A stretch of 64,000 nucleotides of DNA from Bacillota bacterium. GTDB lineage: Bacteria > Bacillota_I > Bacilli_A > RF39 > UBA660. Positions 45,001 to 60,000 of this stretch are shown here, one piece after another. A program made the position numbers. Location of the stretch: the NCBI GenBank assembly GCA_021771185.1, contig JAETPN010000004.1, forward strand, positions 5,903-69,902, given 5' to 3'. How positions within the stretch are numbered: position 1 is the stretch's first letter; each line of letters opens with the position of its first letter.

Positions 45001-48000
45001 CAACAGCGACGACTCGTTGTATCACGGAAGAAGAAGTTCACAGTGATGATACTTGTATTTGTTGTGGAAAGCCTGCTAAACATATTGTTAACTTTGCAAA
45101 GGCATATTAAAAGAAACCTATTTTGGTTTCTTTTTGTTTACATATCGATAGAAATATATGTTGACTTTTATAGTAATGAACTTTATAATGAAAGAGAATA
45201 GGAGTGTGATAATATGCAACATAGAAATAATAAAAAAGCAATCATTGGTGCTCTTTGTGCAGTAATTATTGGTTTAGCTGTAGGCTATGCAGCTTTAAGT
45301 CAGATTTTAACGATCACAGGAACATCAGGGATTACAGGGGATTTTAAAATCGAGTTTACAAAAATCGATGAAGGAACGATGTCAGGAGCAACTACCGTGT
45401 TAAAGGGTGGTGTAGGATCAACCACAGCGAATTTTACTGTAGATCTTAAAAAACCAGGAAGTAGTGCTATCTATGATTTAACTGTAGAGAATAAGGGAAC
45501 CATAGATGCTATATTAACAAGTATTGAAGGAATTGATGAATCTAACTTATCAGAACCTTTGGATATTAAGTATTCACTTATTGGTATTGATGAGGGAGAA
45601 TCTTTAAATGCAGGAGCTACGAAATCATTTCAAGTGAAAGTGGTATGGGACAGTAGTGCAACAAGTGTACCAAGCAAAAGTAAGAATTTAGTATTAAAAT
45701 TAAATTATGAACAAGATACAGGAAGTAGTATAGTAACCACACCAGAAGAATTTTTTGAAATCGATGAATCTGGAACAGTAAAAAAATATACTGGTACAGA
45801 TACAGATATTGTAATTCCAAAAACAATTGGTGGAATTCGTGTGACTCAAATTGGGGAGAATGCATTTTATAATTCACAAGTAACAAGTGTTGTAATACCA
45901 CAAGGTGTAACAAGAATTGATAATTATGCATTTATGAATAGTCAACTAACAAATGTTGAAATGCCAAATAGTGTAACAAGCATTGGTCATGGAGCCTTTA
46001 CACGTAGTCAATTAACGAGTGTAGTTATACCATCTAGTGTAACAACAATTGAGGATAATACATTTTCTGATAATCAATTAACAGACATCGTAATACCAGA
46101 AGGAGTGACAAGCATTGGATTTGGTTCATTTTCAGGTAATCGTTTAACGAGTGTAGTAATATCAGATACTGTAACAAGTATTGTGGATAATGCATTTCGA
46201 GGAAATCAATTAACGAATGTCATTATACCAAAAAATGTAACAAGTATTGGTGAAAATGTGTTTGCTGCTAATACGTCTTTAACGACAATTGTTAATAAAA
46301 CTGGAAACCCATTTGATTGGGCTAAAATTACTGGTCAAGGTTCAGGAACTCCAGCTGTAACAGGAACCTATGGATCCATTAATGTAATTGCTGAATAAGA
46401 TGAAAGAAGATTAAATAGTTAATCTTCTTTTTCTTTGTATTCGATTTTGTTTGCGATAAACCAAAGAAAGGGGTGAATAGAATTTGAGTAATCATTTTTA
46501 GAATCATTTATATAGTCTTTTCACAAAAATTTCAACTCTTATTGATTGACATCGTGACACGTTGTCATATATAATGAATAAGGTATCTATGGAGGTATTT
46601 TATGCCAAGGGAAACATTTAAACATTTATCTAATGAAAAACAACAAGCTATTTTAGAGGCCGCGAAAAAAGAATTTAGTTTGATGTCATTTCATGAGGCT
46701 TCAATTAATAAAATTATAAAAGATGCAGGAATTTCAAGAGGAAGCTTTTATATGTATTTTGAAGATAAAGAAGATTTGTATTATACCATTACGGAACATG
46801 AATTTACAGATATGTTGCATCGAATTTCGAAGTTACTTACGGAAAATGATGGTGATTTATTTATTACTTATAGAATGTTATATGATAAGATTTTATCTTC
46901 AAAAAAAGAGACTGCAGAACAATTACATCGAAAGTTTTTATTGAATTTGAATTTTAAATCTGATCAGTTAGTTTTACAAAAAATGAATAAACATCATAAA
47001 CAGGATATTGAAGTGTTTTTAACGAAAGTGGATATGACGAATTTAAATGTGCGTACAAAACAAGATATTTTTGATTTATTCGATATGTTAAATTTATTAC
47101 TTGTGCATGCCCTTGTGCTGACAATTAAACATGGAAATGACATAGATAAAATAAAAAATAGATATTTCCGTCAGATTGATTTTATTATGGATGGAATAAA
47201 GAAAGGAAGATAGAATGATAAAAGTATTAAAATATTTAAAAAGTTCTTGGATTTCTATTTTAGCAATTATTGCTTTGTTAATTGGTCAAGCAATTTGTGA
47301 TTTATCTTTACCAGATTATACATCGAAGATTGTAAATGTAGGAATTCAACAAGGTGGAATTACTGAGGTAGCGCCTAAGGTAATTCGTGAGGGAAGTCTT
47401 GAACACCTATTATTACTTACAAATAGTAAAGATGCAGAAAAGGTGAAAAAGGCATATCATCTTCTAAAAAAGGAAGATGCTAAAAAACATAAAGATTATA
47501 AAGTCTTAAAAGATGAAAATGTTTATGAATTAAAAGATATCAGTGATGATGAATTAGATGAGTTAGAAGATATTATTGTAAAACCAATGATGATGTTATC
47601 TGTTTTAAATGATGAAAAGGTAACAAATCAAATTATTGATGAGATTATGGCAAATAGTACAATAGAGCTTCAAGAGAAACCAGATTTATTTACGCTTTTT
47701 GCCTATTTACCTGAAGAAGCAAAAGATCAGGTTTTAGATCGTTCTCTAGAAAAAATTGAAAATTTACCTGAAACGGTGATGGAACAAGCAGCTATTTCTT
47801 ATGTGAAGGCAGAATATCAAGCGGTAGGATTAAACACTGATAATATTCAAAGTCGTTATATTTTTATTACTGGTCTTAAAATGCTTGGAATTGCGTTACT
47901 TAGTATGGCTTCTACCATTGTTGTTGGATTTTTAGGAGCTAGAATGGCCGCAAGGTTAGGAAAAACCTTACGTCATCAAGTATTTGGAAAAGTTATGCAT

Positions 48001-57000: not shown

Positions 57001-60000
57001 AGTGGTCGTGTTACGTTCTTTCCATTAAATATTATCAAAGGAAAACAAGTAGATGATACTACTCGACGTATGTTAGATCAAGAAGAAGGGTTCATTGGGG
57101 TAGCGTCTACGTTAGTCAAAAATGATCCTTTATATCAAAAGATTATTGAAAATCAATTAGGAAATGTCCTTGTGGTTGATACACTAGCCCACGCTACAAC
57201 GATTAGTCGTCGTATTGGATATCGTTATCGTATTGTTACTTTAGATGGAGAACTTTTACATGTTGGAGGTTCTCTAACGGGTGGAACTGTAAAAACAAAA
57301 AATGTCATTCGTGAAAAATATGAATTGGAAAATGCACTAAACGAGGAAAAAAATGATCTTGCGAAACAACAACAATTAGAAAATATGATGAATGATATTG
57401 ATTATCAACTAAAAGGTGTAGAAGATGAACTTTATTTAGCTAAAAAAGAACAGTTGATTAAAACTGAAGAACTTCATGTGAAAGAAGAATTACGAACAAA
57501 AACTATGGAGCAATTAGATCATACAACCAAGGAAATTGAAAGTATTGGACATATGTTGGAACATAGTTTAAGTAAGGAAGAAGAACGTATTTTAAATCGT
57601 TTTTATGAAGCAACGAACGAAAAGGAAAAAGTCCGTTTATCATTAGAACAATTACGTGGTGAAAGAACTCATGTAAGTGAAGAATTAGATGCTTATGAAT
57701 TTTCAGTTCGAAAAGAAAATAGCGAAGTCAAGGAAAAAAATAGAGAATTAAAAGAATTGGAAATTGAAGTCAATCGTGCGGATGTTAAATTAGATCATTT
57801 ATTAACTACTTTAAATGAAACCTATGGAATGACTTATGAAAAAGCTCGTATGGAAGTAGAACTTACAGAAGAAGTTTCAACAGCTCGCCTAAAGGTAAGT
57901 AATTTAAAGCGAACATTAAAAGAATTAGGAACTGTAAATTTAGGAGCCATTGAAGAATACGAACGAGTAAGTGAACGCTTTGACTTCTTAACCTCTCAAA
58001 AAGAAGATTTAATCAATGCTGAAAATACACTATTAGAAATTATTCAGGAAATGGATGAAGTGATGGCTGAAGAATTTTCAAAAACTTTTGAAACGATTCG
58101 TAATCATTTTAATGAAACGTTTCAAGAATTATTCCGTGGTGGTCATGCTGATTTAAAATTAACAGATCCTAAGAATTTACTAGAAACGGGAATTGAAATT
58201 GTAGCTTCTCCTCCTGGAAAGAAATTAACGAGTATTTCATTACTTTCAGGTGGTGAAAAAACATTTACAGCAATTAGCTTATTATTTGCTATTTTAAAAT
58301 CACGTCCAGTTCCATTCTGTATTTTAGATGAAGTCGAGGCTGCCTTAGATGAAGTCAATGTTGATAGTTTTGGTCATTATGTGAAAAATTTAAAAGATAA
58401 AACACAATTTATTTTAATTACACATAAAAAGAAAACGATGGAATATGCAGATCTTCTTTATGGAATTACCATGCAAGAATCTGGTGTATCTAAGTTAGTT
58501 AGTGTAAAATTAGAGGATATTAAAGAAGATAAAGCATAGAAAAATTATCAAAAAAGGTAAAAAATATTTTTTACCTTTTTTTGTCTACTTTTATGAATTT
58601 GTTTGTAAAAATATTGACAAATAAAATAGGGAGAAGGTATAATTATTTTAGAATAGGAGTAAGAATATGAAAACAAGACAAAAACAAAAAGTGATCATAG
58701 GAACACTGATTGCAGTCATCCTAGGAATGTGTGTAGGATATGCGGCTTTAAGTCAGATCTTAACGATTACAGGAACATCAGGAATTTCAGGAGATTTTAA
58801 CATTGAATTTACCAAAATTGAAGAAAATACAATGGTAAATGCTAAGACGATAACGAAAGATGGTATTGGTTCAACAACAGCAAACTTTACCGTAGATTTA
58901 GAAAAACCAGGAAGTAGTGCTTTATATGATTTAACCGTAGAGAATAAGGGAAGTATTGATGCTGTTCTAACTAGTATTACAGGTCTTGATGAAAGTAATC
59001 AGAATGAACCTGTAGACATTATCTATACAGTTGCTGGAATTGAAGAGGGGGATACTCTAAATTCTGGGGAACAAAAAAAGTTTCAAGTAAAGGTCGTATG
59101 GAATGTTAGTGCAACGAGTGTACCAACAACTAGTAAGAGTTTAACGTTAAAGCTAAATTATGAACAAAACGCCGGAAGTAGTATAGTAACAACACCAGAA
59201 GAATCTTTTGAAATGGATGAAGCTGGAACAGTTACAACTTATACTGGTACCGATACAGATGTTGTGATTCCAAGTACGATTCATGGAGTTCCTGTTACTA
59301 AAATTGGAGATAGTTCATTTCGAGGAAAAGGGTTAACAAGTGTTGTTATCCCAGACAGTGTAACAGAAATAGATTCAAGTGCTTTTGCCTCAAATAACTT
59401 AACTAGTGTTGAACTTCCAAAGAACTTAACAACTATAAATTATGGTATATTACAAAGTAATCAATTAACAAGCATAAAAATACCAGATGGTGTTACAACA
59501 ATTGATGGTTTTGCTTTTCAAAATAATCAATTAACCAGTGTAGTGATTCCAGATAGTGTAAAAACAATTCGTGATAATGCATTTTCTCAGAATCAATTAA
59601 CTAGTGTTACTATTGGGGCCAGTGTTGAAGAAATTAGTAGTTATGCGTTTGAGATTTCTCATTATGAAGGGATGACATCGAATCCTAATTTAACAAAGAT
59701 TATTAATAAATCAGGAAGGCCATTTAATTGGTATGAAATTACAAGACAAGGTAATTATCAATCTGCAGTAACAGGAACATTTGGACAAGTTATAGTAACT
59801 GCTGAATAAGATGGAAGAAGATTAAATACTTAATCTTCTTTTTGTATGTTCTTGCATTATATATCTATTAATGTATAAAAATTGTCTTGTCAAAAATATT
59901 TTTCTTTTGATAAAATAAGATTGAAATGAGGTTATTATGAAAAGAAAAACAAATCGTTTCTGGTTAGAGAGAAACTTAGAACGTTTTCATCGTGGGGAGG

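Follow-up and report, generated by a model that had tools for sequence, protein, structure and literature searches.

How did three genes with similar ends come to carry repeat cores of different length? The question is raised by a 64-kb stretch of DNA (hereafter the window; ~31% G+C) from contig JAETPN010000004.1 of a Bacillota bacterium (assembly GCA_021771185.1), which holds three co-oriented genes on the + strand, designated P1, P2 and P3, that encode leucine-rich repeat (LRR) proteins. A sequence-only reading had proposed that these genes were duplicated as complete cassettes, from promoter to terminator, and that the variable LRR middle serves as a substrate for gene conversion, in the manner of recombinational antigenic variation. 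The analysis reported here upholds the first part of this proposal and not the second. The three genes are ancient copies of whole transcription units, and their LRR arrays have diverged unit by unit with no detectable exchange. We consider it probable that P1-P3 are old paralogs in a dispersed family of adhesin genes whose products are secreted or displayed on the cell surface, each gene being an autonomous unit that joins a constant 5′ expression and export module to an exchangeable payload.

Layout and expression signals of the three genes

P1 (45214-46398, + strand; 394 amino acids, aa), P2 (54531-55388, +; 285 aa) and P3 (58667-59809, +; 380 aa) are monocistronic units of 1.0-1.3 kb, each set among co-oriented housekeeping genes; P1 sits in the proS-tetR interval, P2 upstream of smc and P3 in the interval from smc to ylmH. 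Their products have in common a 167-aa N-terminal module (hereafter the N-module), encoded at 45214-45714, 54531-55031 and 58667-59167, and a 36-38-aa C-terminal LRR cap (46288-46395, 55272-55385 and 59699-59806), which is divergent in P2. Between them lie a junction (45715-45801, 55032-55118 and 59168-59254) and an array of 66-nucleotide (nt), 22-aa LRR units (45802-46287, 55119-55271 and 59255-59698). All the pieces ascribed to the three paralogs in the sequence-only reading are present and in place, far beyond chance expectation; its repeat counts of about nine, three and seven are corrected to seven, two and six for P1, P2 and P3, respectively. P2 starts at an ATG with AGGAG 8 nt upstream, and the TTG at 54444 that opens the mechanically called open reading frame (ORF) is not its real start. 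The BspA-type LRR model (Pfam PF13306, LRR_5; gathering threshold 27.7 bits) scores 178.9 bits on P1 and 109.1 bits on P3; P2, with two units, falls below the threshold (21.7 bits) but is homologous to P1 and P3 by alignment.

Every copy has its own expression signals. The P1 promoter (45161-45189, +), TTGACT-17-TATAAT, matches 11/12 consensus positions and aligns with those of P2 and P3, and the Shine-Dalgarno sequence of this gene (AGGAG, 45200-45204, +) sits inside the conserved 5′ untranslated region (UTR) GAGAATAGGAGTGTG. The conserved 5′ module of P2 (54466-54526, +) comprises a TTGACA-18-TATAAT promoter at 54477-54506 with spacer AATAGGAAACAGG, followed by the UTR with its Shine-Dalgarno at 54518-54522; that of P3 (58603-58663, +) has the same promoter at 58614-58643 with spacer AATAGGGAGAAGG and the Shine-Dalgarno at 58655-58659. 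These are near-consensus sigma-70-type promoters, those of P2 and P3 matching 12/12 positions with 18-nt spacers. With one extra N, the promoter string of the sequence-only reading has exact matches at just two places, 54474-54506 and 58611-58643 (0 matches in 100 shuffles). The near-identity that it ascribed to the P2 and P3 promoters amounts to 52 matching positions over 61 nt (85%). The 5′ UTR motif TAGAATAGGAGTnnG occurs in the window only ahead of P1, P2 and P3, and the hairpin GAAGAAGATTAAATAnTTAATCTTCTT only behind their three stop codons, with 0 occurrences expected. The hairpins and their T runs (P1, 46403-46432, +, AAAGAAGATTAAATAGTTAATCTTCTT; P2, 55393-55422, +; P3, 59814-59843, +) have computed folding energies of -11.7 to -14.1 kcal/mol.

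Duplication of whole transcription units

Nucleotide homology among P1-P3 begins ~65 nt 5′ of the ATG, at the -35 element, and continues to ~35 nt 3′ of the stop codon, through the hairpin and T run; beyond that span it ends, at the terminators of the neighbouring genes. Because the homology includes promoter, UTR and terminator, it demonstrates that the genes were copied as whole transcription units. Identity is 73-83% over the first 510 coding nt and 67-74% over the last 105, and in the 60 nt upstream it reaches 86% for P2/P3 and ~68% when P1 is compared with P2 or P3. By the Nei-Gojobori method, the 5′ coding part common to the three genes has a synonymous divergence (dS) of 0.60-0.82 and a nonsynonymous divergence (dN) of 0.13-0.24, with dN/dS ~0.2-0.3. 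Synonymous divergence of this size establishes that the duplications are ancient and that the conserved ends have been held mostly at the protein level. Aligned at the nucleotide level, as the sequence-only reading had advised, the three loci are homologous, but the similarity of their conserved ends is largely one of protein sequence, an outcome that this reading had itself named as speaking against it.

A relative of P3 from another organism and sample, X2 (P0002, locus L002), is 74% identical to P3 and shares with it the promoter layout, the UTR and the exact hairpin sequence, yet it lies behind rpsL-rpsG-fusA-tuf, unlike P3. A further paralog, X10 (P0010, locus L027), stems from the sequencing run that also yielded a contig 100% identical to the window; its 5′ UTR agrees with that of P3 at every position, whereas its terminator is different. 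Further relatives found only at NCBI (P0003, P0005, P0020 and P0045) are known from protein records. The upstream modules of P2 and P3 are better conserved than their synonymous sites (85% against 59% identity, binomial p ~7e-6), and the hairpin stem is invariant in four copies (P1-P3 and X2, the N-module of X2 standing at dS ~0.9-1.2). Conservation of the promoter, UTR and hairpin exceeds that of synonymous sites, which establishes that these elements are themselves under purifying selection. Together with the flank homology and the occurrence of the X2 unit in another context, this comparison bears out the claim of duplication as complete cassettes. The string TTTTTGT(A), which follows the terminators on both sides of the units, was considered as a boundary or microhomology and rejected; it follows many unrelated terminators and occurs at chance frequency.

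Two further observations concern the 3′ ends. A conserved ATG located one base past the stop codon (window 46399-46413, 55389-55403 and 59810-59824; L002 5981-5995) opens a four-codon mini-ORF, ATG GAA/AAA GAA GAT TAA (M-E/K-E-D-stop), which extends into the 5′ arm of the terminator hairpin. This ATG is kept in 4/4 copies although it lies outside the stem in P2 and P3, and it could reflect either coincidence or translational coupling to termination. At window 51229-51250, the terminator of an upstream ABC-transporter gene is formed by the last codons of that gene (GAA GAA GAA TAA TCTTCTT, then a T run). Although similar to the outer stem of the hairpin in the cassettes (GAAGAAGA...TCTTCTT), this terminator is a different element.

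Divergence of the LRR cores

The longest exact tracts shared between loci, 47 nt in P1/P2 and 33 nt in P2/P3, both fall inside the N-module, and no such tract is present in the LRR region among P1-P3. When all LRR units are compared with one another at the nucleotide level, the best match between loci reaches 77%, within the background range of 61-77% for any two units (61-74% being typical), so that the mosaic units which the sequence-only reading expected to be shared across loci are not seen. Tandem Repeats Finder reports only 67% matches within the P1 array and does not detect that of P3. P3 and X2 can be aligned without gaps over 380 codons, with the same six units, mostly position for position, at dS 0.74, and P1 and P0005 are colinear over 394 aa with equal unit number at 60% identity. 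This colinearity indicates that LRR unit number is stable across deep divergence. A tblastn search of the 64-kb window found no promoterless LRR fragment outside P1-P3, and hence no silent donors; each of P1-P3 has its own promoter (11-12/12), Shine-Dalgarno and terminator. Taken together, these comparisons show arrays that have diverged unit by unit without detectable exchange.

Two other candidate signals of recombination were set aside. The proportion of synonymous differences in the junction and first LRR unit is below that of the N-module, but it is so in every pair alike, which marks it as a property of the segment and not as pair-specific conversion. The two-Cys variant of the junction found in P2 and P0003 does not follow overall junction similarity and was not used.

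The strain scope of these results is one genome of the organism in collections. The 90% cluster of every paralog has a single member, and an exact-protein search with the flanking 83-aa gene returned one contig (Logan), the one identical to the window, which is broken inside P3. Short-read contigs break at the 33-nt P2/P3 tract (L001 start, window 59122) and at the 5′ UTR shared by P3 and X10 (L027 start); conserved pieces of the family thus fragment k-mer assemblies, and copy numbers in metagenome-assembled genomes (MAGs) are likely to be underestimates.

The N-module family

The N-module is not confined to the LRR genes. Two further copies, absent from the list of the sequence-only reading, bring the number in the window to five. 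P4 (51317-51916, +; 199 aa) consists of the N-module alone, with its own promoter and a different terminator, and is a candidate plain subunit. P5 (37508-39028, +; 506 aa) joins a divergent N-module (~30% identity) to a payload homologous to that of P0020 (Pfam DUF6273). Within the window, only P1-P5 contain the motif G-[YF]-[AS]-x-[LF]...G-[TV]. The module begins with a Lys-rich N-terminus and a 16-residue hydrophobic segment, followed by an invariant G-Y, a near-invariant A-A-L, a strand L-x-I-x-G-T and a CARDB-like beta-sandwich ending in NYEQ. An AlphaFold (AF2) model based on 85 sequences, with a predicted local distance difference test (pLDDT) score of 84, shows a helix at residues 2-33 and an 8-strand sandwich; weak Pfam matches are to CARDB (44/85 members), to Peptidase_M73 (5/85 members) and also to HYDIN-type Ig domains.

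A profile of the N-module retrieves 396 word-indexed relatives, mostly stand-alone proteins of ~170 aa without a Pfam domain, and an exhaustive profile search yields 8,819 cluster representatives, 4,500 of them at E <=1e-10. Among the best 150 matches listed, the module is N-terminal in all, in proteins of 121-874 aa. Candidatus Pelethosoma (Mycoplasmatota incertae sedis) provides the nearest species-representative genome, a rabbit-gut Bacilli MAG holds at least 14 family copies, and a second metagenome scan returned only three distant family loci; the family is not viral. By these profile matches, the N-module defines a large family of predicted surface proteins in gut Firmicutes for which Pfam has no model.

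Payloads are interchangeable among N-modules: P0020 matches P3 at 87% identity in this module but carries the DUF6273-like payload of P5, whose own N-module is only ~30% identical to that of P3. Other members carry CBM2 domains, Listeria-Bacteroides-type repeats, further domains or no payload. Several rabbit-MAG paralogs (L010, L012, L014, L022 and L026) have Hint/intein-like C-termini, ...HNYYVG..LLVHN, typical of polymorphic-toxin architectures, which suggests that some payloads may be toxins and not adhesins. A third payload type (P0033, P0025), syntenic in two samples (L028 4507-9212 and L029 1-3103), lies directly downstream of genes for a SpaA-type pilin, a class C-like sortase and a conserved membrane protein.

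Signal peptidase operons and promoter tracts in relatives

Two abundant stand-alone members, P0174 and P0202, lie in the same four-gene operon in two independent neighbourhoods (L030-32, operon at L030 7001-10806; L033-35, operon at L033 6001-9403). In each, the family gene is followed by genes for a protein with the same GY[AS]xLxQ signal and CBM2 domains, a polytopic protein of ~392 aa, and a DUF5305 protein. The C-terminal part of the ~392-aa protein matches the archaeal-type signal peptidase I model TIGR02228 at 93 bits (cut-off 51.85) and the SipW model at 67 bits. Conservation in the family peaks in a stretch (G24, Y25, A26, A27, L28, L32, I34, G36 and T37) that lies in the predicted mature N-terminus, and residues 31-40 lie outside the sandwich in the monomer model with pLDDT 53. 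In the light of the operon link, and since G-Y-A fits the -3/-1 rule, conservation of the signal and early mature region probably reflects recognition by a SipW/TafD-type peptidase, and possibly a donor-strand role as well.

The promoters of relatives hold a second feature of interest. Twelve family promoters in the MAGs CANQNL01 (rabbit gut; L012-L025) and CAOJZV01 (Firmicutes; L023) carry tracts of G10-G17, the length differences being between paralogs, placed between a -35 element (TTGCCA or TTGTCA) and TATAAT ~50-60 nt upstream of the family gene, with spacers of 17-24 nt. Across all fetched loci, runs of at least eight Gs are found at this spacer position in 12/12 cases. By alignment, the promoters of P2, P3 and X2 are homologous to these poly-G promoters, although the proteins are only ~40% identical, and the spacers AATAGGAAACAGG (P2), AATAGGGAGAAGG (P3) and AAATGGAGAGAGG (X2) sit where the G tract does; similar interrupted versions occur inside the MAGs. 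The poly-G tracts predict that in uncultured gut Bacilli the family undergoes phase variation by strand slippage. Nowhere does the window contain a run of eight or more Gs, and the longest G run in the P2 and P3 spacers is three; with their 18-nt spacers and perfect hexamers, the window copies look fixed, and we infer that their promoters are permanently on. Runs of A in the 5′ coding region were also considered as slippage sites and rejected as too short (at most 7 nt).

Nearly all window genes lie on the + strand, with housekeeping neighbours that include proS, smc, uvrC, mutL, rpsB and tsf. A further probable surface protein, with no relation to the N-module family, is encoded by a giant ORF of 3,161 aa (2260-11745, +); it has bacterial surface Ig-like and HYR domains and, oddly, a Pterin_4a-like stretch in its interior. 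P4 is separated from the ORF that follows it by a 6S (SsrS) RNA gene (52025-52198, +), which scores 46.7 bits against an Rfam gathering score of 46.4.

Discussion

The interpretation that we favour is a division of labour between a constant and a variable part. Each copy is autonomous, with a promoter, a 5′ UTR bearing the Shine-Dalgarno, a coding sequence and an intrinsic terminator, and couples the constant N-module to a variable payload, which in P1-P3 is a BspA-type LRR array with its conserved cap. Export of the product would follow the Sec pathway, with cleavage behind G-Y-A by a signal peptidase of archaeal type dedicated to this task, as appears to hold for the stand-alone relatives, and the N-module would anchor or polymerise the adhesive LRR domain. 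Diversity would arise from a repertoire of differently armed paralogs and not from recombination between them, and the homologous promoters that related genomes may switch through a poly-G tract would here be fixed in the on state.

Several results count against this account or narrow it. A Sawyer-type run test marks one nominally significant tract, P1/P2 coding nt 235-279, which holds the 47-nt identity (p ~0.002 before correction for six pairs), so that rare short conversions within the N-module are possible, and the comparison is one of a single genome, in which LRR copy-number or sequence polymorphism is possible as well. No repeats, transposase or integrase flank the P1-P3 units to account for their dispersal. 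No gene for a signal peptidase or a DUF5305 protein is found in the window or in the few contigs probably of the same sample, and processing is accordingly read from relatives whose N-modules are ~43% identical. Finally, a Foldseek search of the N-module model against the PDB returns generic Ig-like matches only, at E >=0.008.

Gene conversion, with the flanks acting as homology arms and LRR segments swapped among the three loci to give antigenic variation of the pilE/pilS, vlsE or MgPa type, has the conserved ends around a repeat core of differing length in its favour, as well as the nominally unlikely 47-nt tract and the presence in the window of mutL and uvrC, which points to normal recombination and repair functions. 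We nevertheless judge it very improbable. The flanks are only ~67-84% identical, at dS 0.6-0.8; the LRR region offers neither a shared tract nor a unit pair above 77%; every copy is expression-competent, with no silent donor in 64 kb; unit number and order are kept at deep divergence in P3/X2 and P1/P0005; and the lower synonymous divergence of the junction lacks any pair-specific signature. None of these tests supports the LRR middle as the gene-conversion substrate that the sequence-only reading took it to be. Mobility of the units themselves, with the invariant 26-bp palindrome after the stop codon serving as a recombination site (attC-like or similar) instead of or besides a terminator, is the most improbable of the readings considered here. 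The T run after the hairpin, which folds like an ordinary intrinsic terminator, fits termination, and no integrase, transposase or recombinase gene lies near any copy; X10, P4 and P5 have unrelated terminators, and no direct repeats flank the units. Among the fetched loci the hairpin is found only after P3 and X2, being absent from the 24 other family loci, and it has 0 matches each in viral contigs and Joint Genome Institute (JGI) metagenomes. What commends the idea is a stem that is invariant in four copies, with no compensatory changes, at a distance where synonymous sites are half saturated, that has only two G-C pairs and was missed by a consensus terminator scan, and the different locations of X2 (behind tuf) and P3.

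Two readings extend to P1-P3 what is seen in relatives. In one, the N-module would act as a pilin that builds a bacterial filament of the Taf/TasA kind by donor-strand exchange, P4 being a plain subunit and P1-P3 and P5 adhesin-carrying subunits within the fibre or capping it. We regard this as possible but doubtful. The recurrent operon, with its two-domain protein bearing the same signal, its SipW/TafD-type peptidase and its DUF5305 protein, argues for it: PMC11821415 and PMC12337348 describe archaeal taf clusters as encoding pilins of 150-200 aa together with a two-domain tip protein, the peptidase TafD and the DUF5305 protein TafG, which is the same gene set. The peak of conservation at the predicted mature N-terminus is unpacked and of low pLDDT, as a donor strand would be, and the weak Foldseek matches include the PapG and FimA pilin domains and an archaeal pilin. 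Against this, the N-module profile has 0 matches among PDB sequences, TasA is not among the top Foldseek matches, hhalign gives only 28% probability for an N-module/TasA relation, and the window lacks the peptidase and DUF5305 genes. In the other reading, P1-P3 would themselves be phase-variable, through slippage of promoter or 5′ coding repeats as in Mycoplasma vlp, exposing changing subsets of LRR adhesins. According to PMC2268961, spacer indels switch vlp, maa2 and vmm on and off, and G10-G17 tracts occupy exactly the corresponding position, with 17-24-nt spacers, in the homologous promoters of related MAGs; the 5′ module is moreover conserved among the paralogs, as in vlp genes. In the window, however, runs of eight or more Gs are absent, G runs in AATAGGAAACAGG and AATAGGGAGAAGG do not exceed three, the 12/12 hexamers stand at a fixed 18-nt spacing, and the first codons hold no A run longer than 6-7 nt, which makes switching of these copies very improbable.

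Our favoured account, of old autonomous paralogs with constant expression modules and exchangeable payloads, could be part of a wider and more speculative picture, which on balance we hold to be unlikely. The LRR genes would be adhesin-armed subunits of undescribed bacterial Taf/TasA-like donor-strand pili (~8,800 clusters with a G-Y signal, a SipW/TafD-type peptidase and interchangeable payloads), expressed from an ancient promoter that carries a poly-G switch in related gut Bacilli and is locked on here. If true, cell-walled relatives of the mycoplasmas would possess a phase-variable repertoire of adhesins of the Vlp kind, of which the present genome holds locked-on copies. Both the fibre and the switching parts derive from relatives and from inference. 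Gene conversion of LRR cores, a mechanism familiar from textbooks, finds no support in the sequence. What deserves attention instead is that a promoter and 5′ UTR are conserved across genomes whose proteins share only ~40% identity, and that the poly-G spacers of relatives predict phase-variable adhesin repertoires in uncultured commensals. The linkage of N-module, peptidase and DUF5305 raises the directly testable question of whether Taf/TasA-like fibres with exchangeable adhesin tips are widespread in bacteria. For annotation, dispersed LRR domain-containing proteins of this kind should be treated as one family together with P4 and P5.

Comparison with known systems

The likeness to Neisseria pilE/pilS, Borrelia vlsE and Mycoplasma genitalium MgPa is superficial and consists of conserved ends around a variable middle. 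Those systems combine one expressed copy with promoterless donors, long near-identical flanks and shared mosaic segments. In P1-P3 each copy is independently equipped for expression, flank identity stands at 67-84% and mosaics are absent. A literature search on recombination among BspA paralogs found nothing relevant.

P1 and P3 carry a genuine LRR_5 array as their payload, as do the BspA-like adhesins (Tannerella BspA, Treponema LrrA and streptococcal HupY/LrrG). BspA-like LRR proteins bind ligands on surfaces, and by analogy the P1 and P3 payloads presumably do the same. The HupY/LrrG model matches over the repeats at 94 bits, far below its equivalog cut-off of 1250, which indicates that these proteins are not orthologues of any named adhesin. 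They differ further in the N-module, in the C-cap (IVNKTGxPFxW...TGTxG) and in the lack of an LPXTG, lipobox or Por signal in P1-P3, whose C-termini, ...TGTYGxxxVxxE, show no sorting signal. The internalins of Listeria, a multigene family described in PMC2867954 and PMC3019230, are similar in being a paralogous repertoire of LRR surface proteins with conserved N-terminal parts, differing LRR numbers and their own expression signals. The present family differs in its 22-residue BspA-type LRR, its N-module and anchoring, and in that no recombination signal was detected; Pfam and NCBIfam searches of P1-P3 give only LRR_5/BspA-type matches and no internalin-type LRR.

With regard to export and assembly, the gene set of the operon of distant stand-alone members parallels tafA/E, tafC, tafD and tafG of the archaeal clusters (PMC11821415; PMC12337348), and also tapA-sipW-tasA. 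The family departs from both in its Sec-type signal with a distinct GYAAL(S/A)Q motif, in the fusion of many members, P1-P3 included, to large adhesin domains away from peptidase genes, and in an N-module with no detectable sequence relation or confident fold relation to TasA.

The Vlp proteins of Mycoplasma hyorhinis, and likewise maa2 and vmm, offer a parallel in gene design. P1-P3 differ from them in having no homopolymer, in not being lipoproteins and in being dispersed among housekeeping genes instead of clustered, and the tract in relatives is poly-G; the vlp tract is poly-A. Common to both is a conserved 5′ block of promoter, UTR and signal in front of divergent, repetitive C-termini. 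The homologous promoter of relatives, moreover, carries its G10-G17 homopolymer between -35 and -10, at the same position as the switching indels, and the closest genome representative of the family falls within Mycoplasmatota incertae sedis.

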